DNA from: a bacterium | GTDB lineage: Bacteria; Bacillota_I; Bacilli_A; RF39; UBA660 | Assembly: GCA_022779465.1 (NCBI GenBank) | Contig: JALFTB010000001.1 | Location: forward strand, 3,824-67,823 | Length of the DNA: 64,000 nucleotides | Direction of reading: 5' to 3' | In this document: positions 17,093 to 63,425 of the stretch, piece after piece | How positions within the stretch are numbered: position 1 is the stretch's first letter | How the letters are laid out: each line of letters opens with the position of its first letter | The notes under the pieces: model-generated | The model's database searches: none | The model's input: the letters and a program-made list of their open reading frames with translations, nothing else | What the model was told of the DNA's origin: nothing | Translations under genes and position numbers: made by a program

Positions 17093-17437
17093 TTAGTTTA
17101 TTTTATTAACAATTAATTGTCCTTCTTGAAGATAAATTGTATCATTATACTTTAAAAGATTGGAAACATTGGTATTAAATGTGTCTGCTACGGTTTTTAA
17201 TGTGTCTCCTTCTTTTGTTATATAATAAGCAAAATCCTTTTTAGGTATCATTATACTTTGATCAGGATAAATATAATCTGTTGAATTTAACCCATTTAAT
17301 AAGGCTAGTAAAGTAGGATTTACTTTATAATCTCTTGCAATTTGATAAATGGTATCTCCTTTTTTTATAGTATAATAGTTGAAATATTCATTTTCTCTTT
17401 CTTCTGTTTCTTTATTAATATTATACATGTTAAACAT
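17093..17437 (-). CDS. tandem LysM-domain protein
   Basis: Two LysM repeats are present: YTIKKGDTIYQIARDYKVNPTLLALLNGL and YYITKEGDTLKTVADTFNTNVSNLLKYND. Confidence 0.75.
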   Translation of the reverse strand: MFNMYNINKETEERENEYFNYYTIKKGDTIYQIARDYKVNPTLLALLNGLNSTDYIYPDQSIMIPKKDFAYYITKEGDTLKTVADTFNTNVSNLLKYNDTIYLQEGQLIVNKIN

Positions 17438-36703: not shown

Positions 36704-37126
36704 TTATCTTTTATTTTCCCAAAATTTTTCAATTATTTTTTTATATTTATCTATAGAATTTTCATTACTTTTTTCTTCGATTTGAAAAAAGTTAGTCTTA
36801 TTGTATATTTTTTTAGATTTTAAACGTGGAACTAAATAAAATACCTTGTCAATTCTACTTTCTTTTATAACATTTTTACACATTTCACATGGTTCAATTG
36901 TTACATATAACGTACAATTGTTCAATCTCCAATTTTTTAATTTTTGATTTGCTTTTGTAATTACTTTAATTTCAGCATGATCAATAGTTTTATTACTATG
37001 TTTTCTAGTATTATGGGCTTTGGCAATTATTTTATCGTTATGTACAATGATGGCGGCCACAGGTACTTCATCTTTTTTTAATGACTTATAGGATAGTTTT
37101 ATTAATTCATCTATATATTTTTCCAT
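36704..37126 (-). CDS. tadA: tRNA-specific adenosine deaminase
   Basis: The CDA-fold motifs HAEI and PCEMC are present. The true start is the internal MEKYIDEL with a GAGGAG RBS. The ORF-track N-terminal extension runs through the SRP RNA gene and is spurious. Confidence 0.8.
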   Translation of the reverse strand: MEKYIDELIKLSYKSLKKDEVPVAAIIVHNDKIIAKAHNTRKHSNKTIDHAEIKVITKANQKLKNWRLNNCTLYVTIEPCEMCKNVIKESRIDKVFYLVPRLKSKKIYNKTNFFQIEEKSNENSIDKYKKIIEKFWENKR

Positions 37127-37136
37127 TTTACTCCTC

Positions 37137-37216
37137 AAAAAAAGCGCACATACATAGAGGCAAATATGGCTGCTTTCTTCCGAATCTGACCAGGTTATTG
37201 CGTTTGTATTGCGCAT
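37137..37216 (-). ncRNA. ffs: small (4.5S-type) signal recognition particle RNA
   Basis: The minus-strand RNA reads GCGCAAUACAAACGCAAUAACCUGGUCAGAUUCGGAAGAAAGCAGCCAUAUUUGCCUCUAUGUAUGUGCGC plus a U7 run. It contains the conserved domain IV motif (GGUCAG...GGAAG.AAGCAGCC) inside a long closing helix. A TTGAAA-N17/18-TATATT promoter lies at about 37222-37258. Confidence 0.75.
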
Positions 37217-37295
37217 ATATAATATAGCATATTTTAATTACAGATTTCAATAATTGGATTTTTACTAATTTTAAAAATTTGTATTTTTTATTTTT

Positions 37296-37905
37296 TTATT
37301 GTTTCACGTGAAACATATGTGGATTTTTTTTGTAATTAAGTACTTATATAACTAAGTAATATTTTATAGGTTAATAAATAATAATTTTTTGATTGTAATG
37401 TATGGTATACAATGTTTCACGTGAAACATTGTTGACAACTTTAATATTAGATTTGATGTGAGTTATATATATTAAGTATGCTAATTTAGTTTTCTGCAAA
37501 TTAATTTCAATAATTTGCTCTTGTAGGCAAAAAATTATATGTTTCACGTGAAACATGTGTGGAAATAATTACTAATACATAAAATTTGTAAATGTTTATT
37601 TATTTTTTTACTTAAAATTATTTCCCGGGAAATAATTTTGTGTATATGTTTCACGTGAAACATATACTATTATTAATAAATTTTCAGTTTTTATAATAAA
37701 ATTGATGAAATAACGCTATTTTAAATAATTTAATAGCTTTGCAAATTAATTTCAATAATTTGCATTAGTAATTTTACTTATGTTTCACGTGAAACATTGT
37801 GGATATCTGTTTTTTTCTATTTTTTATTCAGATTTGGTTTTTCTGCAAATTAATTTTAATAATTTGTTTGTTTTTGTTGTGGATATGTTTCACGTGAAAC
37901 ATATC
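37296..37905. repeat. parS: array of six perfect parS centromere sites (TGTTTCACGTGAAACA)
   Basis: Identical 16-mers occur at 37300-37315, 37413-37428, 37540-37555, 37647-37662, 37781-37796 and 37886-37901, spaced 102-134 bp apart. The flanks are symmetric, which extends each palindrome to 18-24 bp. Confidence 0.85.
37620..37633. promoter_or_regulatory. Noc-binding-site-like palindrome ATTTCCCGGGAAAT
   Basis: This is a 14/14 match to the B. subtilis NBS consensus, embedded between parS copies 3 and 4. It is the only CCCGGG in the region. Confidence 0.6.
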
Positions 37906-37914
37906 TGTAACTAA

Positions 37915-37945
37915 AAAAGGTAGCTTTTATGCTACCTCTTCGATT
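37915..37945 (-). terminator. gyrA rho-independent terminator (overlaps stop codon)
   Basis: The minus-strand stem GGUAGC-AUAAAA-GCUACC is followed by a U-run. Confidence 0.65.
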
Positions 37946-43629: not shown

Positions 43630-44079
43630 TTATTTACCCTTTTTTCGGTTTTTAAAAGCTGTTTCTAATGATAAAGATTTTAAATATTGATTTTGAATAA
43701 TTCTATATGAAGTATCTATTTCTATACATTCATTATTTAAAAATTCGATTATGCTTTTTTCGGATTTAGAATGAACTTTTTTGATGTTATTTACGTTGAT
43801 CCACGCACAATCTTTTAGTCTTGGTGAACAAGTTGGAAAAAATATAATGCTTTTATCTTCTTCAACTATAATTGGCGCTTTATAGTTAAAACCAGTTAAT
43901 GAATATGTGCCTTGAATTCGTCCAGAAATACTACTTCCGTAATATTTACAGTTAGAATCCATTATTTTTAGGATTTTTTCATCAACAATATAACATTCAT
44001 GGTCTTCATAAATTACAGTTTTCTTTTTTCCAATTGGTATTAATGCAAGCGTATTTTTGTTAATTTCATAATCTTTCAT
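43630..44079 (-). CDS. comK: ComK-family transcription factor
   Basis: The product aligns along its length with B. subtilis ComK. Matching segments include YEINKNTLALIPIG, NCKYYGSSISGRIQGTYSLTGFNYKAPIIVEEDKSIIFFPTCSPRLKDCAWINVNN and SYRIIQNQYLKSLSLETAFKNR. It is 149 aa, shorter at the C-terminus than ComK (192 aa). Confidence 0.8.
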   Translation of the reverse strand: MKDYEINKNTLALIPIGKKKTVIYEDHECYIVDEKILKIMDSNCKYYGSSISGRIQGTYSLTGFNYKAPIIVEEDKSIIFFPTCSPRLKDCAWINVNNIKKVHSKSEKSIIEFLNNECIEIDTSYRIIQNQYLKSLSLETAFKNRKKGK

Positions 44080-45418: not shown

Positions 45419-46789
45419 CTAATTAACAATTTTATTTTTAATTTCTTCTAATGTTTCTTTAAGTTCCATATTTGTTTTTAATTCAGTACTGATTTTTTCA
45501 TAAGCGTGTAATACAGTTGAATGATCTCGATTACCAAATTCTAATCCTATTTTAACGATTGTTTCTTCTGTTGTCATTCGGCAAAGATATATGGCAATTT
45601 GTCTAGGATAATTAATATTTGCAGTTCTTTTTTTACTTTTTAAGTCCTCTACCGTTATTTTGTAGTGGTCTGCTACTGCTTTTTGAATTCTTTGAATATC
45701 ATTTGTTATATATATTGATTTTCCTAAATAATCTTTTAAAGCTTCAACTGCAAATTCCAAGTTAATTTCTTTAGGTCCCATCATTGCTGCATATGCATAA
45801 AGTCTTGTTATAGCACCTTCTAAATGTCTTACATCGTTTTCACAATTAGATGCAATATATTCTATAACGTCGTTTTTAACTAGTCTTGCAACTTCATGAC
45901 CAGTCATTTTTGCTTTTAAAATCTTACATCTTAGTTCAAAATCTGGTGGATCAATATTAACTGTTAATCCCCATCTAAATCTTGTTAATAACCTGTCTTC
46001 TAAATATTTAAGGTCATCTGGTGATTTATCCGAACTTATAATAATTTGTTTATTTGAATCATATAATGTTGTAAAAGTGTGGAAAAATTCTTGTTGAGAT
46101 TTTGCAGCTCCTGATAGGAATTGAATATCATCTATCATTAAAATGTCGATATTTCGGTATTTTTCCTTAAAGTGATCAATTATATCATTATTATTATCAT
46201 TTTCATCTTTAATATCTTTACGATTTATTCCAATAAAATCTGAAATAAATTCTTCACTTGTTACGTATAAAACTGTTTTATTTGTATGACTTTCAATATA
46301 ATTACCGATTGCATGCATTAAATGGGTTTTACCTAGTCCACTTTTTCCGTATATAAATAATGGATTATAGATTTTTCCGGGTTGTTCTGCGACTGCAAGT
46401 GCTGCAGTTTGTGCAAATCTGTTACTATCCCCTATTACAAAGTTTTCAAAAGTATATTTTTCGTTTAAATTTGAATTTATTTTTTTATATTGTTTATCAA
46501 CTATGTTAAGATTATTGTTTATTTCTGGGCTTTCTTCCACATTTTTTTTAGTAGTAAAATTAAGATTATAATTTTCTCCTGTGATAGCAAATACAATTTC
46601 ATGAATAAAATCGTAATAATATTGATTTAAATAGTCTGACGTAAATACTGAATCTGCTTCAATATTCATTGTGATACCTTCAATAGATTTTAATTTAGTT
46701 TCTGCAAACCAGGAATTAAATGATATATCAGGTACTTTACTTTGAATAACATTTAAAACATTAGTCCATAGTTCATCATAATTCTGCAT
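45419..46789 (-). CDS. dnaA: chromosomal replication initiator DnaA
   Basis: An AAA+ core (GKSGLGKTHL) is followed by a C-terminal DnaA-box binding domain. The start is taken at the internal MQNYDELWTNVL, which has a GGGTGAGGAA RBS. The ORF-track N-terminal extension is spurious. Confidence 0.95.
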   Translation of the reverse strand: MQNYDELWTNVLNVIQSKVPDISFNSWFAETKLKSIEGITMNIEADSVFTSDYLNQYYYDFIHEIVFAITGENYNLNFTTKKNVEESPEINNNLNIVDKQYKKINSNLNEKYTFENFVIGDSNRFAQTAALAVAEQPGKIYNPLFIYGKSGLGKTHLMHAIGNYIESHTNKTVLYVTSEEFISDFIGINRKDIKDENDNNNDIIDHFKEKYRNIDILMIDDIQFLSGAAKSQQEFFHTFTTLYDSNKQIIISSDKSPDDLKYLEDRLLTRFRWGLTVNIDPPDFELRCKILKAKMTGHEVARLVKNDVIEYIASNCENDVRHLEGAITRLYAYAAMMGPKEINLEFAVEALKDYLGKSIYITNDIQRIQKAVADHYKITVEDLKSKKRTANINYPRQIAIYLCRMTTEETIVKIGLEFGNRDHSTVLHAYEKISTELKTNMELKETLEEIKNKIVN

Positions 46790-47030
46790 TTCCTCACCCA
46801 CCTTAGTTTGCTTTCTTAAGTTAATTTTAAAACAATCCTGTGGAAAAATAAAGAATAAAAATGAAAAATTTGTTTTTCCAAAGTTTTTCCACAGCTTTAT
46901 CAACAAAACTCACCCTATTTTATCGCACTAAAAACACTTTTTCAACATTTTCCACAAAATAAAATTAACATTAATTTTTGAAATCCACATTTTCCAATTT
47001 TTGTAAAAAATGTGGAAAAATATTTGGCTG
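46790..47030. promoter_or_regulatory. oriC DnaA-box cluster upstream of dnaA
   Basis: TGTGGAAAA or TTTTCCACA-type boxes lie at 46839-47, 46885-93, 46948-56, 46981-89 and 47011-19. Confidence 0.65.
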
Positions 47031-50589: not shown

Positions 50590-52458
50590 ATGAAATTTGA
50601 TATTATTGTCGTAGGTGGTGGACATGCTGGATGTGAAGCTTCTAATGCTAGTGCAAAAATGGGACTTAAAACAGCTTTAGTGACTGCCAATATAAAGAAT
50701 ATTGCTGATATGCCTTGTAATCCTTCAATAGGTGGTACTGCCAAAGGTATTGTAGTAAGAGAAATTGATGCGATGGGTGGATTGATGGGTAAAGTCGCTG
50801 ATAAAACTCATATTCAAATTAAAATGTTAAATAATGCTAAGGGTCCAGCTGTAAGATCATTAAGAGCTCAAGCAGATAAGATTACTTATCCAAAAGAAAT
50901 GTTAAAAGAGTTACAAGCTTTAGATAATTTAACAATAATTGAGGGCATGGTAGAAAATTTAATTGTTGAAAATAACACTATAGAAGGTATTATTTTAGAA
51001 AATGGTACGGAAATTTATTGTAAGGCTTTAATTCTTACGACAGGAACATATTTAAAGAGTAAAATTTTAATTGGAGCTGAACATAAAGATGAAGGTCCCC
51101 ATGGTGAAAGAAGATCTAACTTTTTAAGTGATAAATTAAAACAATTAGGATTTGAAATTCAAAGATTAAAAACTGGTACTCCACAAAGAATTGAAAGAAG
51201 TTCAATTGATTTTAGTGTGTTAAAACCTGAGTGTGGTGATGATTGTTATTGGACTTTTAGTTTTGATAATCCTCCTTATTATGATAAAGATAAACAAGAA
51301 AAATGTTATATTGTTTATACTAATGAAAAAACTCATCAAATTATAAGGGATAATCTTTCAAAATCTGCTATGTATGGTGGGTATGCTGAAGGTATAGGTC
51401 CAAGATATTGTCCTTCAATTGAAGATAAAGTTGTTAGATTTGCTGATAAAGAAAGACATCAATTATTTTTAGAACCAGAAAGTTTATATTATGATGATAT
51501 ATATTTACAGGGATTTTCAACTAGTATGCCTTATGATGTTCAAGAATTAATGGTTCATAGTTTACATGGATTAGAACATGCAATTATAAAAAAATATGCT
51601 TATGCAATAGAATACGATGCTATAAATCCATTACAGTTAAAACCATCTTTGGAAACTAAAGTAATTAATAATTTATTTACAGCTGGACAAATTAATGGTA
51701 CTTCTGGTTATGAAGAAGCTGCTGGTCAAGGATTAATAGCTGGAATTAATGCTGGATTAAAGATTCAAGGTAAAAATCCTTTAATTTTAAAAAGAAATGA
51801 ATCTTATATTGGGGTTTTAATTGATGATTTAGTTACAAAGGGTACAAAAGAACCTTATAGATTATTAACTTCTCGTGCAGAATATAGATTACTTTTACGT
51901 CATGATAATGCTGATTTAAGATTAAGAAGATATGGATATGAAGCGGGTACAATAAGTAAAGAACAAATTGAAGTATTAGATAAAAAAATAGCTGATATAA
52001 ATGAATTAAGTGATTACTTAAAGAGTATTAGAGTTACTCAAAATAGTTTGCCTGATAATTTAAAAAATAAGTATTCTATAGAACTTAAAAATGGGGTAAC
52101 TTTATATGATTTACTTAGAAGACCAGAAATCAAATTACAAGATTTAATTGATAATAATATGCTTAATAAAGAATATTCTCCTTTAGTTTATGAACAAGTG
52201 GAATTTGCTGTAAAGTATGAAGGATATATAAAGAAAGAAGAACTTGAGGTACAAAAGTTATTAAAATTAGAAGAAAAACAAATTCCTCAAGATATAGATT
52301 ATGATAATGTGAAAAATTTAGCTTCTGAAGCAAAACAAAAATTAAAACTTGTAAAACCATTAACTTTAGCTCAAGCTTCAAGAATAAGTGGTGTTAATCC
52401 TGTTGATATTTCAATATTAGCTATATATTTAAAAAAGGAATATAATCAAAATGACTAA
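50590..52458 (+). CDS. mnmG: tRNA uridine 5-carboxymethylaminomethyl modification enzyme MnmG
   Basis: The N-terminus has an FAD-binding GxGxxG motif (VVGGGHAGCEAS) and the product is 622 aa. Confidence 0.9.
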   Translation: MKFDIIVVGGGHAGCEASNASAKMGLKTALVTANIKNIADMPCNPSIGGTAKGIVVREIDAMGGLMGKVADKTHIQIKMLNNAKGPAVRSLRAQADKITYPKEMLKELQALDNLTIIEGMVENLIVENNTIEGIILENGTEIYCKALILTTGTYLKSKILIGAEHKDEGPHGERRSNFLSDKLKQLGFEIQRLKTGTPQRIERSSIDFSVLKPECGDDCYWTFSFDNPPYYDKDKQEKCYIVYTNEKTHQIIRDNLSKSAMYGGYAEGIGPRYCPSIEDKVVRFADKERHQLFLEPESLYYDDIYLQGFSTSMPYDVQELMVHSLHGLEHAIIKKYAYAIEYDAINPLQLKPSLETKVINNLFTAGQINGTSGYEEAAGQGLIAGINAGLKIQGKNPLILKRNESYIGVLIDDLVTKGTKEPYRLLTSRAEYRLLLRHDNADLRLRRYGYEAGTISKEQIEVLDKKIADINELSDYLKSIRVTQNSLPDNLKNKYSIELKNGVTLYDLLRRPEIKLQDLIDNNMLNKEYSPLVYEQVEFAVKYEGYIKKEELEVQKLLKLEEKQIPQDIDYDNVKNLASEAKQKLKLVKPLTLAQASRISGVNPVDISILAIYLKKEYNQND

Positions 52459-53155
52459 AGAAGAATTTTTTAATTTAATAAATGAATTAAATATTGTATT
52501 AAATGATGTGCAAAAACAACAATTTGAGTTATATTGTAAATTATTATTAGAATATAATACTCATACTAATATTACAGCAATTAGAGAGGAATCTGGGGTT
52601 TATTTAAAACATTTCTATGATTCTTTAACATTAGTAAAAGTTTTTGATTTTAATCATGAATATTCAGTTTTAGATGTAGGATCTGGAGGTGGATTTCCAG
52701 GTTTAGTCTTAGCAATAGCTTTTCCAAATTTAAAATTAACACTTTTAGATAGTAACCATAAAAAATCTGATTTTCAAAAATATATTGTTTCTGAATTAAA
52801 TCTTAATAATGTAACAATTGTTAATGATAGAGCAGAATCTTTCTTTAAAGAAAATATAAAATATGATGTAGTTGTGGCGAGAGCTGTTGCTAATCTTTCA
52901 GTATTATCTGAATTATGTATTCCTTTTGTTAAAAATTCTGGATATTTTTTAGCCATGAAAGGTGATTTTGCAGAGGAATATCAAAATGCATTTAATGCTA
53001 TTACTAAATTGGGTGGTACAATTGAATCTAAATTTGATTTTAAATTACCGATTTCTGAAGATTTAAGAAGTATTATAAAGATTAAAAAAATAAAAGAAAC
53101 CCCTAAAGAGTTTCCGAGAATGTATGACAAAATAATTAAAAGACCATTGAAATAA
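52451..53155 (+). CDS. rsmG: 16S rRNA m7G527 methyltransferase RsmG
   Basis: The SAM motif LDVGSGGGFPG is present. Confidence 0.9.
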   Translation: MTKEEFFNLINELNIVLNDVQKQQFELYCKLLLEYNTHTNITAIREESGVYLKHFYDSLTLVKVFDFNHEYSVLDVGSGGGFPGLVLAIAFPNLKLTLLDSNHKKSDFQKYIVSELNLNNVTIVNDRAESFFKENIKYDVVVARAVANLSVLSELCIPFVKNSGYFLAMKGDFAEEYQNAFNAITKLGGTIESKFDFKLPISEDLRSIIKIKKIKETPKEFPRMYDKIIKRPLK

Positions 53156-53204: not shown

Positions 53205-54407
53205 ATGGAGTCACAAGTTCAAAATATAAATATTGATTTAATTATACCAAATAGATTTCAACCACGCCTTTCTTTTGACGAAAAAGCTTTAAATGAATTA
53301 GCTGAGTCTATTAAACAACATGGTATTATTCAACCTTTAATTGTAAGGCAACTTGCTGATAAATATGAAATTATAGCTGGTGAAAGAAGATATAAAGCAG
53401 CTACTTTGGCTGGGTTATCAACTGTTCCTGTTATTGTAACTAATTTGTCTGATGCTAAGAGCGCTGAAGTTGCTCTTGTTGAAAATATTCAACGTAAAAA
53501 TTTAAGTTCAATAGAAGAAGCACTTTCATATAAGAGAAAAATAGATAAAGATAATTTAACTCAAGAACAATTAGCTAAATTATTGGGATTATCTCAATCA
53601 ACAGTTGCTAATCGTTTAAGATTGTTAAATTTAAGTAATGAAGTTCAAGATGCCTTATTAAAAGAAAAAATAAGTGAGCGTCATGCAAGAAGTTTATTAC
53701 AAATAAGTGATAAAAATAAACAAACCGAATTATTAAATCGTATAATAACTGAAAGATTAACAGTTAGACAGTTAGATGAAATAATAAAAAAAGAATTATC
53801 TTCACCTAGCACTTATGCAGAGGAAATACCTAGTAATTTAGAACAGCCTTTATCTTCAGAACCGGAAGCTGAACCAATTCCAGAACAAATTCCTTCAACT
53901 CAAATTGAAAGTTTGGATGTTTTAGGTGATGATAATACTTTAGATAATTCAAATAATATATTTGATACTGAAATAGATGCTTCAATGCCATCAGAGACTT
54001 TAGAGGAAATAGATAAAGAACCACAACATGAAGAACCTATGAGTAATATTTTAAATTTCTTACAAAGTTTTAATAATTCAGCGCCTTCACTTGATGATGA
54101 ACCAACTAATATGCAAACTTTTGATGATGATGTATTTAATGATGTTCATAGCGCTTATGATTTAATCGATGATGCAAATAAAGATCCAGATATTGTAAAT
54201 TTAGATACTGTTAATGAATCAAGTGTAACATCTGATAATCAAGTTTTAGACGATGTTGTTCCTAGAATAAAATCTGGAGATATGAGTTCATTAAAGAAAG
54301 CATATCATGATTTACAAGATGAAGCAGAAAAAGCAGGCTTTAAAATAAGCATGGAAGATTTTGATTTTGAAGATTTATATCAAATGATAATTAAAGTTGA
54401 TAAGTAA
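53205..54407 (+). CDS. ParB/Noc-family CTPase with a long acidic disordered C-terminal tail
   Basis: It has the ParB N-terminal domain with the GERRxRA CTP-binding motif (IAGERRYKAATLAGLSTVPVIV) and an HTH (GLSQSTVANRLRLL). The last 200 residues are D/E/S/P-rich low complexity. No ParA/Soj gene is adjacent. Confidence 0.75.
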   Translation: MESQVQNINIDLIIPNRFQPRLSFDEKALNELAESIKQHGIIQPLIVRQLADKYEIIAGERRYKAATLAGLSTVPVIVTNLSDAKSAEVALVENIQRKNLSSIEEALSYKRKIDKDNLTQEQLAKLLGLSQSTVANRLRLLNLSNEVQDALLKEKISERHARSLLQISDKNKQTELLNRIITERLTVRQLDEIIKKELSSPSTYAEEIPSNLEQPLSSEPEAEPIPEQIPSTQIESLDVLGDDNTLDNSNNIFDTEIDASMPSETLEEIDKEPQHEEPMSNILNFLQSFNNSAPSLDDEPTNMQTFDDDVFNDVHSAYDLIDDANKDPDIVNLDTVNESSVTSDNQVLDDVVPRIKSGDMSSLKKAYHDLQDEAEKAGFKISMEDFDFEDLYQMIIKVDK

Positions 54408-59153: not shown

Positions 59154-59666
59154 TTGAAAAAAATACTAGTTATTATAGGAGTAATATTATTTTTATTAAG
59201 CATAAATTATAATAATAAAGAAGAAGTATTTATTCCTAAAGATTCTATTAGATTTAGAATAGTAAGTAATAGTATGAATGAAGTTGATTTAAAAACTAAA
59301 CAAGAGTTAAAAAGTTATATAGAAGATTATGTTTATGATATAGTAAGTGATGCTAAAAGTAGTGAAGAAGCGGATGAATTATTGGTTAATAATTTAGAAA
59401 AAATTAGCAAACATATTAATCAATATTTGAATTCTAACAACTATAAAATAGATTACGGTATAAATTATTTTCCAAGAAAGGTATATAAAGGAGTTGTATA
59501 TGAAGAAGGTATGTATAAATCTTTAGTAATAACTTTAGGAGATGGAAAAGGTTCTAATTGGTGGTGTGTTTTATTTCCACCATTATGTTTATTAGATGAA
59601 AATGAAACAACAGCAGATGTTGATTATCAATTATATGTTGCTAGAATAATTAAAGTATTTAATTAA
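59154..59666 (+). CDS. spoIIR: stage II sporulation protein R
   Basis: A signal anchor, RFRIVSNSMNEVDLK and the near-invariant NWWCVLFPPLC motif are present. The ORF uses a TTG start. Confidence 0.7.
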   Translation: MKKILVIIGVILFLLSINYNNKEEVFIPKDSIRFRIVSNSMNEVDLKTKQELKSYIEDYVYDIVSDAKSSEEADELLVNNLEKISKHINQYLNSNNYKIDYGINYFPRKVYKGVVYEEGMYKSLVITLGDGKGSNWWCVLFPPLCLLDENETTADVDYQLYVARIIKVFN

Positions 59667-62720: not shown

Positions 62721-63425
62721 TTGTTAGGAGTTGTGTCTGCAGAAATGCCTGCTTTGTTTAATATTGAAGCATTAAAAGCGCAAGTAGTTGCTTCTAGAAG
62801 TTTTATTTTAAGTCAAAGCAATGATAGAATTCTTAATACTACAAGTGGAGCTCAAGCTTATCAAGATTTATATGAACTAAGTAATAAGTGGAATGATAAA
62901 TATTATGAATATTTATCTAAAATGCAAAAAGCAATTGAGGAAACAAAAAATGAAGTAATAAAAAGAGATAATAAAATATTAAGGACATATTATTTTGCTA
63001 TGAGTAATGGATATACTGAAAATTCTCAAACTGTTTTTAAACAAGAACTATTTGAAAGTGTAAAATCTGATGAAGGAAGAGATACTAAATATAAAATAAC
63101 TTTAACTTTAGATGAATTTAAAAATAAATTAAATGTAGGTACAGTAAACATAGGTGAAATAAAAAGAAATAATACTAATCATGTAGATTATATTATGATT
63201 AATAATAATAAATATAGTGGGATTGATTTTAGAAAAAAGCTTAATTTAAGATCAACTGATTTTAATATTGAAATAAATAATAATAATGTTGTGATTGAAA
63301 CTAATGGTTATGGACATGGGGTTGGTATGAGTCAATATGGAGCTAATGCCATGGCAAAAAAAGGTTATAATTATAAAGAAATTCTTGAATATTATTATCA
63401 AAATATTGATATTTTAAAAATATAG
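62721..63425 (+). CDS. spoIID: stage II sporulation protein D (SpoIID/LytB domain); 5' end probably extends to about 62550
   Basis: The product has SpoIID signatures (LLGVVSAEMPALFNIEALKAQVVASRS, NGYGHGVGMSQYGA). The same frame stays open upstream to 62526 and encodes a signal anchor (KKIVLLILFLIPIYISSF) with no canonical start codon. Confidence 0.7.
   Translation: MLGVVSAEMPALFNIEALKAQVVASRSFILSQSNDRILNTTSGAQAYQDLYELSNKWNDKYYEYLSKMQKAIEETKNEVIKRDNKILRTYYFAMSNGYTENSQTVFKQELFESVKSDEGRDTKYKITLTLDEFKNKLNVGTVNIGEIKRNNTNHVDYIMINNNKYSGIDFRKKLNLRSTDFNIEINNNNVVIETNGYGHGVGMSQYGANAMAKKGYNYKEILEYYYQNIDILKI

Follow-up and report, generated by a model that had tools for sequence, protein, structure and literature searches.

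A conserved Noc-binding site in an origin-proximal parS array and its predicted Noc-type reader in a gut lineage of Bacilli

How do the binding sites of two different chromosome-organizing proteins come to lie side by side in DNA that offers a single candidate to read them? Noc is the textbook nucleoid-occlusion factor of Gram-positive bacteria, defined by scattered Noc-binding sites (NBS) and by a membrane helix gated by cytidine triphosphate (CTP). In a 64-kb stretch of contig JALFTB010000001.1 (RF39 lineage; the whole stretch is called the window below), one NBS lies inside an array of six parS sites, and tblastn detects one gene of the ParB/Noc family, at 53205-54407, which starts 15 kb from the NBS. 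A preliminary description of the window had reported the exact match to the 14-bp NBS consensus, its position between parS copies 3 and 4 and the lone family gene, all of which hold, and had offered two explanations: one protein reads both palindromes, or a Noc and a ParB share the locus. The second is favored here, as the window gene carries Q173 and R201 and a separate Soj-ParB with R173 and G201 is encoded in the clade. We put at roughly 0.78 the probability of the following reading: the NBS is functional and is most likely the nucleation site of the 53205-54407 protein, the parS sites serve a separate ParB, and the Noc-type protein has a role in the origin domain.

Conservation of the palindrome

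The 16-bp NBS TATTTCCCGGGAAATA is matched at 16 of 16 positions, its 14-mer core ATTTCCCGGGAAAT occupies 37620-37633, and the perfect palindrome around it spans 26 bp (AAAATTATTTCCC followed by GGGAAATAATTTT). The gap between the NBS and parS copy 4 is 12 bp. The features are as follows:

37251..37917, no strand: non-coding array of six parS sites and one NBS, about 670 bp, from the ffs promoter to the gyrA terminator
37300..37315, no strand: parS copy 1, TGTTTCACGTGAAACA, exact match
37413..37428, no strand: parS copy 2, exact match
37540..37555, no strand: parS copy 3, exact match
37619..37634, no strand: NBS, 16-bp palindrome, exact match, within the 26-bp palindrome 37614-37639
37647..37662, no strand: parS copy 4, partner of the NBS in a dyad, spacer ATTTTGTGTATA, 28 bp start to start
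37781..37796, no strand: parS copy 5, exact match
37886..37901, no strand: parS copy 6, exact match
53205..54407, plus strand: gene of a Noc-type ParB-family CTPase of 400 aa, predicted NBS binder

Could such a palindrome be a product of chance, a restriction site of the SmaI/XmaI type, or an operator bound by some regulator unrelated to Noc? It occurs once in the window, where no second NBS-like site within 2 mismatches is found in the 64 kb (the next nearest has at least 3), and AT-rich DNA yields many palindromes, with 23 perfect 14-mers of any kind here. Against this, base composition predicts 1.0e-4 copies of the 14-mer per window, and the sole CCCGGG of the window, whose GC content is 25.7%, falls inside the NBS. 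Related origin regions were fetched by a DnaN scan from metagenome-assembled genomes (MAGs) of uncultured gut 'Bacilli/Tenericutes', one per species; the 80 loci comprise 21 kb each, 10 kb either side of dnaN, with DnaN identity from 97% down to 56%, and they add up to 1.37 Mb (1.43 Mb with the window; labels such as L001 and L100 denote stretches from relatives). The preliminary description had regarded the site as accidental should NBS-like sites prove not to be enriched anywhere; the identical 16-mer is present in 89 copies in these regions, compared with about 0.002 expected, and 47 of the 80 species have at least one. The copies recur at four positions, namely the gyrA-tadA array (41), the inside of dnaX (22), the jag-mnmE interval (17) and the inside of ybaB (9), and a Noc-type reader is encoded, with matching residues, in every relative where that region is visible. 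Given the 1.0e-4 expectation and the exact copies kept by 47 of 80 species, with two coding frames among them, chance or a restriction site was rejected and explanations of this kind seem barely conceivable.

The copies within genes indicate the level at which conservation acts. Within dnaX, the NBS falls in a variable linker whose peptide is not conserved, and translation gives IISREII in one frame and YFPGNN in another; thus, selection acts on the DNA rather than on the peptide. In ybaB, the site of relatives is read as LFPGKY. Examples of the dnaX/ybaB type are L003:19931, L005:12138 and 12267, L027:19170, and L030:19050; the window's own dnaX and ybaB contain no NBS. Across the lineage, the consensus extends to a 24-bp palindrome, AAAT-TATTTCCCGGGAAATA-ATTT. 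Aligned with its counterpart in the sister species L001, the spacer shows 85% identity over its whole length, with no change in the NBS, while the adjacent parS has decayed to TATG-TTAACGTGATACA (L001:17640-17700 against window 37640-37665), and therefore the two elements of the dyad evolve independently. All 49 complete gyrA-tadA spacers contain parS and 18 of them contain an NBS too, so that a position within the array is common but not obligatory. Some species have an NBS without recognizable parS downstream of gyrA, and in others the parS array is long, reaching 11 copies, with NBS absent from the captured 21 kb; examples of these two kinds are L030 and L032 (about 17280-17304), L038, L042, and L045. 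Judged by its conservation, the palindrome is a real, evolutionarily maintained NBS and not a chance occurrence.

A Noc-type reader and a separate ParB

Which protein, then, would read the NBS? The best NCBIfam match of the 53205-54407 protein is nucleoid_noc (TIGR04285), at 277.4 bits or 278.7 bits with its linker removed, and the clade's true ParB scores 244 bits against the same model. Its best PDB matches are the Noc entries 7NG0 and 7NFU, with Geobacillus and B. subtilis Noc ahead of Spo0J. In a neighbor-joining tree of 18 taxa (core of about 195 aa, 100 bootstraps), the window protein and 11 lineage orthologs cluster with B. subtilis Noc (BsNoc) and Geobacillus Noc (GtNoc) in 100 of 100 bootstraps, and the lineage's own ParBs cluster with B. 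subtilis Spo0J. The gene follows rsmG (52451-53155), an order that is the same in all related loci and in B. subtilis. By phylogeny and synteny, the window protein is a Noc ortholog. Noc orthologs outside Bacillales are to be expected, because noc, parA, and parB were inferred in the ancestral Firmicute origin cluster (Garcia 2021, PMC8136486). A contig search with the window protein matched a single 8.3-kb Logan contig.

The recognition region (GLSQSTVANRLRLLNL ... ISERHAR) gives Q173, R179, N184, and R201 in Caulobacter ParB numbering, that is, Q-R-N-R, to be compared with Q-K-K-R in Noc and R-T-A-G in ParB; orthologs have Q-K-N-R in 105 of 120 database matches. A mutational study of this region found that Q173 reads the adenine (A1) and R201 the cytosine (C6) that set NBS apart from parS, that a single lysine at 179 or 184 suffices to license NBS binding, and that ParB invariably has R173 and G201, with every parS-specific variant retaining R173 (Jalal 2020, PMC7383237). 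Because its residues 173 and 201 match this rule, the window protein is predicted to be NBS-specific.

The opposite possibility, that this one protein is bispecific and binds both parS and NBS with no second paralog, draws on several observations. It is the lone ParB-family gene: no second one was found in the 64-kb window, searched by tblastn, or in the 21-kb loci of the 80 relatives. Moreover, the canonical soj-parB slot after noc is taken by a convergent PBP1A gene, and dual-specificity variants do occur in the published mutational scan (PMC7383237). However, the window protein has the NBS-type pair Q173/R201, whereas parS binders in that scan always keep R173 and dual binders mostly join R173-type elements with T or S at 201 (PMC7383237). 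The sites themselves fall into discrete classes: the window and the 80 loci together have 90 NBS 16-mers and 236 parS-type 16-mers, and 2 of 328 sites deviate at the discriminating positions, one alone of which joins an NBS-type base to a parS-type core. In addition, the specificity residues are alike in species with NBS but no parS and in those with parS but no NBS. A single reader, one of the two options of the preliminary description, is thus contradicted by the residues and by the near absence of hybrids, and we consider it very unlikely.

A further case against a bispecific protein comes from relatives in which a Q-K-x-R protein coexists with Soj-ParB. In a sister clade (L145, L148, L202-L205), the gene order is rsmG, noc-type gene, soj, parB; the noc-type protein there has Q-K-S-R and likewise lacks the membrane helix, and the ParB has R173, G or S at 201, and the peptide LGRGLEELF at its N-terminus. 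Wherever this region is visible in the window's clade, the gene after the noc-type one is convergent PBP1A. A search of representatives seeded with the sister-clade ParB led to a second large ParB group (296 aa, R-M-x-G, N-terminus METKRKALGKGLEQLF), encoded in a block of ftsH, an open reading frame (ORF), soj, parB, mscS, DUF951, abgT, and ychF, which is the same downstream block as in the sister clade but detached from noc. All 240 ParB matches have R-M-x-G/S and an N-terminus of 45-49 aa. Three of five NCBI records for such soj-parB contigs come from MAGs already in the DnaN set: JAAWDB010000019 (with L035), CALVMI010000100 (with L044), and CANQEG010000029 (with L064). Of these, L044 carries both the Noc-type gene and NBS, and its MAG also has the soj-parB contig; the two other ParB records, CDRRMA01 and CAOMAY01, have no matching MAG in the DnaN set. 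The paralog inventory that the preliminary description had proposed therefore has two sides: a second ParB lies on other contigs of three clade MAGs, and none lies in the window. The genes that neighbor parB in L202 and L206 (mscS, DUF951, abgT, ychF, ftsH, tilS) are also missing from the window, so there is no visible sign of a ParB just past its edge. A Noc-type protein and a canonical Soj-ParB therefore coexist in the clade, subject to MAG binning error. A single bispecific protein was rejected as the main model once Soj-ParB was found in the sister clade and in three clade MAGs; with Soj-ParB encoded elsewhere in the clade and next to no hybrids, these comparisons support a model of two proteins, each with its own type of site.

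Sites around oriC and a protein lacking the membrane helix

The genes of the window are those usual around the origin in Firmicutes. Their order is, on the minus strand, mfd ... recR, ybaB, dnaX, tadA, the array, gyrA, gyrB, recF, comK, dnaN, dnaA, and on the plus strand rnpA, yidC, jag, mnmE, mnmG, rsmG, and the ParB-family gene, followed by convergent PBP1A. The GC skew switches sign near 46-47 kb, and DnaA is encoded at 45419-46906. The array is about 9 kb from oriC, and its six perfect parS copies (37300-37901) are clustered about 9 kb from dnaA. The preliminary description had considered an NBS at such a place unusual, on the grounds that these sites are normally excluded from the origin-proximal region or sparse there; this was mistaken, since published NBS are absent from the terminus and enriched toward the origin (PMC4331003, PMC5540599). 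The real oddity, as far as the sequences tell, is the combination of sites confined to the neighborhood of oriC with a protein devoid of the membrane-targeting helix.

A metagenome scan with the pattern AATTATTTCCCGGGAAATA, in which an AATT flank was required, matched at least 120 stretches; among the matches listed, 101 are low-GC (GC of at most 32%) and 19 are higher-GC, from other taxa. As many as 94 of the 101 low-GC matches listed (about 93%) come from DNA syntenic with window 28-54 kb, some 30 kb around oriC: 91 have the syntenic genes and 3 are fragments of the array or of dnaX/ybaB. Five of the remaining low-GC matches listed adjoin polA/fpg and two lie elsewhere. An even spread over a genome with an assumed size of 1-1.8 Mb would put about 2% in the origin region. 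The higher-GC matches show, as a control within the scan, what the classical scattered pattern looks like: 15 of the 19 listed lack origin synteny. The recurrent site outside the origin region is found beside polA, next to fpg and a PolC-like gene (L088:7782, L135:1989, L159:1946 and 4885, L190:519, and L200:4990).

In relatives, NBS and parS are often paired. A parS start lies 21-40 bp from the NBS in 47 of 266 non-redundant NBS sites, with a mode of 28-30 bp, and the window pair 37619/37647 (28 bp) is one such dyad. Several relatives have the unit TGTTTCACGTGAAACA-t-TGTGGATAA-aat-TATTTCCCGGGAAATA, in which a perfect DnaA box separates parS from NBS and which is repeated five times in L100 (L100:190-1830); the box between the two sites in relatives is a perfect TTATCCACA. 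With at most 1 mismatch allowed, a DnaA box is present in the spacer of 10 of 39 distinct dyads and in 0.9% of control windows, an enrichment of about 30-fold. The best DnaA box in the window's own spacer, ATTTTGTGTATA, has 2 mismatches. Arrays of up to seven NBS copies occur in L091, L100, L120, L132, and L150. As a separate observation, DnaA-box-like TGTGGA(T/A) or xTCCACA motifs lie within 1-3 bp of most window parS copies (37316-37327, 37556-37566, 37797-37806, and 37876-37886), two of them being ATATCCACA. The idea that the array is a DnaA-box cluster was dropped, because enrichment across the whole window is weak (33 boxes with at most 1 mismatch against 24 expected) and strong enrichment is confined to the spacers between parS and NBS in relatives.

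The protein itself combines conserved CTP-binding boxes with an unusual N-terminus. The boxes FQPR, GERRYKA, and ENIQR are intact and are invariant across 27 orthologs. An AlphaFold 2 model has a confident core formed by the N-terminal CTP-binding domain and a helix-turn-helix (HTH; residues 1-200), a disordered acidic linker of about 150 aa (residues 201-351), and a C-terminal helix with two strands (residues 355-400; 360-399 in the model), and the last 33 aa match Noc model positions 223-255 weakly (E = 0.13). The protein starts with MESQVQNINIDLIIPNRFQPR, 13 residues ahead of IIPNRFQPR, and its alignment begins at Geobacillus Noc residue 26. The ATG at 53205 is the first start after the in-frame stop and is preceded by the ribosome-binding site AGGAAGGG; in all 118 scorable orthologs, 10-19 residues precede IxPNRFQPR. 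Because the alignment starts at GtNoc residue 26 and the start codon is fixed, the Noc-type protein of the window, as predicted from its gene, is without the N-terminal amphipathic membrane-targeting helix (about 10 aa) and without alpha2. This helix was found in all Noc homologs examined in an earlier study, which showed it to be needed for function (Adams 2015, PMC4331003), and it is gated by CTP (Jalal 2021, PMC8429893).

The linker has features of its own. In one subclade, it contains a motif N[IL]FN[LIF]F ... PSL[ED]DExxN[ML] (about 54040-54150 in the window, residues ~280-312), with a weak helix at residues 282-292 in the AlphaFold 2 model; the linker of another subclade has YE[IT]F[DN]IPTAEE, loosely like the FtsZ C-terminal peptide. 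The conserved linker motif may be a candidate partner-binding motif. A relocation of the membrane helix into the linker was not adopted, as the N[IL]FN[LF]F motif has no flanking basic residues.

Is the window's NBS nevertheless an ordinary site of a classical nucleoid-occlusion Noc, one of many scattered copies that fell into a parS array by accident? Its sequence does not differ from the consensus of B. subtilis and S. aureus, phylogeny and synteny make the protein a Noc ortholog, a single NBS in 64 kb is what the mean density in B. subtilis would give (about 70 sites, PMC4331003), and published NBS maps are enriched toward the origin (PMC5540599). On the other hand, the predicted protein lacks the amphipathic helix and alpha2, though the helix is required for function (PMC4331003, PMC8429893), and the sites do not appear to be scattered over the chromosome arms: 94 of 101 low-GC matches listed fall in a region of some 30 kb around oriC, the NBS forms fixed dyads with parS, and some arrays hold as many as seven NBS. 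Hence, an ordinary site of this kind is unlikely, if less so than a bispecific reader.

Several other features of the window deserve mention. A gene for the small signal recognition particle (SRP) RNA, ffs, lies at 37129-37225 on the minus strand (Rfam RF00169, 58 bits), next to a promoter-like site (37250-37221), and a terminator-like hairpin of gyrA lies at 37918-37937; Rfam detects no RNA family inside the array, the flanking small SRP RNA being the sole match. The RNA gene overlaps the 5' part of the mechanically called 'tadA' ORF (36704-37216), and translation of tadA probably begins near 37128 instead, behind the ribosome-binding site GAGGAG. Three copies of TGCAAATTAATTTCAATAATTTGC (37495-37518, 37740-37763, and 37844-37867), each with inverted arms GCAAATTA and TAATTTGC around 7 nt, are interleaved with parS and kept in L001. 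A ComK-family gene (43630-44079, minus strand; Pfam PF06338, E = 4e-37) lies between recF and dnaN, a position it has across the 80 related loci. The host lineage has a GC content of about 25%, and its MAGs are often labelled 'Tenericutes'. The sporulation genes spoIIR (59154-59666) and spoIID (62721-63425), with CoatF near parB in L206, and PBP1A point to a walled, spore-forming lineage.

Proposed role and known systems

How might the NBS and its reader work? In the scheme that we favor, a dimer of the Noc-type protein would read the two half-sites by its HTH, with Q173 contacting A and R201 contacting C, and the basic residue 179 would provide a permissive backbone contact. Binding to NBS would promote CTP binding, closure of the N-domain into a clamp, and sliding onto the flanking DNA, as in other ParB-family CTPases. 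The six parS sites would be read by a separate canonical ParB (R173, G201), partner of Soj, encoded elsewhere on the chromosome. Two paralogous clamps would in this way be loaded next to each other in the 670-bp spacer that follows gyrA, at a distance of about 9 kb from oriC. The clamp scheme is taken from knowledge of the family (PMC8429893, PMC7383237), and NBS binding, CTP-dependent clamping, and the cellular role are inferences.

Several points weigh against this reading. The protein scores 277 bits, below the curated cut-off of 315 bits for nucleoid_noc TIGR04285. The prediction of its specificity depends on four residues whose effects were studied with the ParB of Caulobacter as scaffold; position 184 has N in place of K, and the exact QRNR and QKNR variants were not found in the supplementary text of PMC7383237. 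We infer the canonical ParB of the window's own genome from clade members and from parS conservation. Restriction of NBS to the origin derives from the matches listed in a metagenome scan that required the AATT flank, and with five low-GC matches listed adjoining polA/fpg, NBS are not exclusively near the origin. Finally, the window has a single NBS, and an NBS inside the parS array is seen in 18 of 49 species.

A chromosome-wide nucleoid-occlusion role for the window protein is probably not its function. Since it has no helix, tethering of DNA to the membrane, the route to nucleoid occlusion known from published work, would be unavailable to it, and it more likely marks or organizes the origin domain, whether through the ParB/SMC centromere, origin positioning, or DnaA access. 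DnaA access is suggested by the DnaA box inside dyads together with the role of S. aureus Noc in replication control (PMC5540599). A bolder and tentative view, to which we give clearly less than even odds, is that Noc in this lineage is a second, origin-specific, anchorless CTP clamp whose parS-DnaA box-NBS modules are built into the centromere. If this were true, a stretch of about 45 bp would be the place of competition or cooperation among ParB, DnaA, and Noc, which would couple the firing of the origin to SMC/ParB loading and to the positioning of the origin. This could also be what Noc did ancestrally, before Bacillales gained the membrane helix.

The lineage is abundant in gut metagenomes, and it has kept the NBS sequence perfectly, dropped the helix, and gathered the sites at the origin. 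It may thus provide a natural test of how a Noc clamp acts without membrane binding, and an example from nature in which two paralogous CTP clamps are loaded onto one DNA track at sites separated by a few base pairs, possibly offering a view of Noc before or after it became an occlusion factor. Moreover, with hundreds of sites and almost no hybrids, nature confirms the strict discrimination between parS and NBS seen in deep mutational scanning. No description of helix-less Noc orthologs, origin-restricted NBS, or parS-NBS dyads was found in the literature searched.

Sequence, phylogeny, and synteny place the site and its predicted reader in the Noc-NBS system of B. subtilis and S. aureus (Wu & Errington 2004; Wu 2009; Adams 2015; Jalal 2020, 2021; Pang 2017). 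The 16-bp site is the same, and the window protein falls in the Noc clade in 100 of 100 bootstraps, is encoded downstream of rsmG, has Q173, a basic residue 179, and R201, keeps its CTP boxes intact, ends in a C-terminal domain that weakly matches the end of the Noc model, and belongs to a clade in which it appears to coexist with Soj-ParB and parS. Two defining functional features, the membrane-targeting helix and a chromosome-wide distribution of sites, are nevertheless missing from what the sequences predict. Unlike classical Noc, the window protein amounts to a natural N-delta-26, without the membrane helix or alpha2, and it differs further in its disordered acidic linker of about 150 aa, in N184 instead of K, and in its sub-cut-off NCBIfam score. 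Classical Noc has about 40-70 sites across the origin-proximal half to two-thirds of the chromosome, whereas the sites of the lineage are concentrated in some 30 kb around oriC, where they form arrays or are joined to parS in fixed dyads.

In its layout, the system also resembles the ParABS centromere (Spo0J/ParB with parS near oriC), in which clustered palindromic 16-mers load a CTP-dependent ParB-family clamp, and the lineage's NBS distribution is similar to that of parS. In contrast to ParABS, however, the site sequence and the residues of its reader are Noc-type, and the window protein has no N-terminal ParA-stimulating peptide (LGxGL) of the kind borne by the clade's true ParB. A third comparison is with S. 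aureus Noc (SaNoc), a regulator of replication initiation (Pang 2017). SaNoc retains the membrane helix and has sites over half of the chromosome, unlike the predicted protein of this lineage. In both, Noc is tied to oriC: weak chromatin immunoprecipitation (ChIP) peaks of SaNoc flank dnaA (Pang 2017, PMC5540599), and in this lineage the tie would be made by the NBS around oriC.

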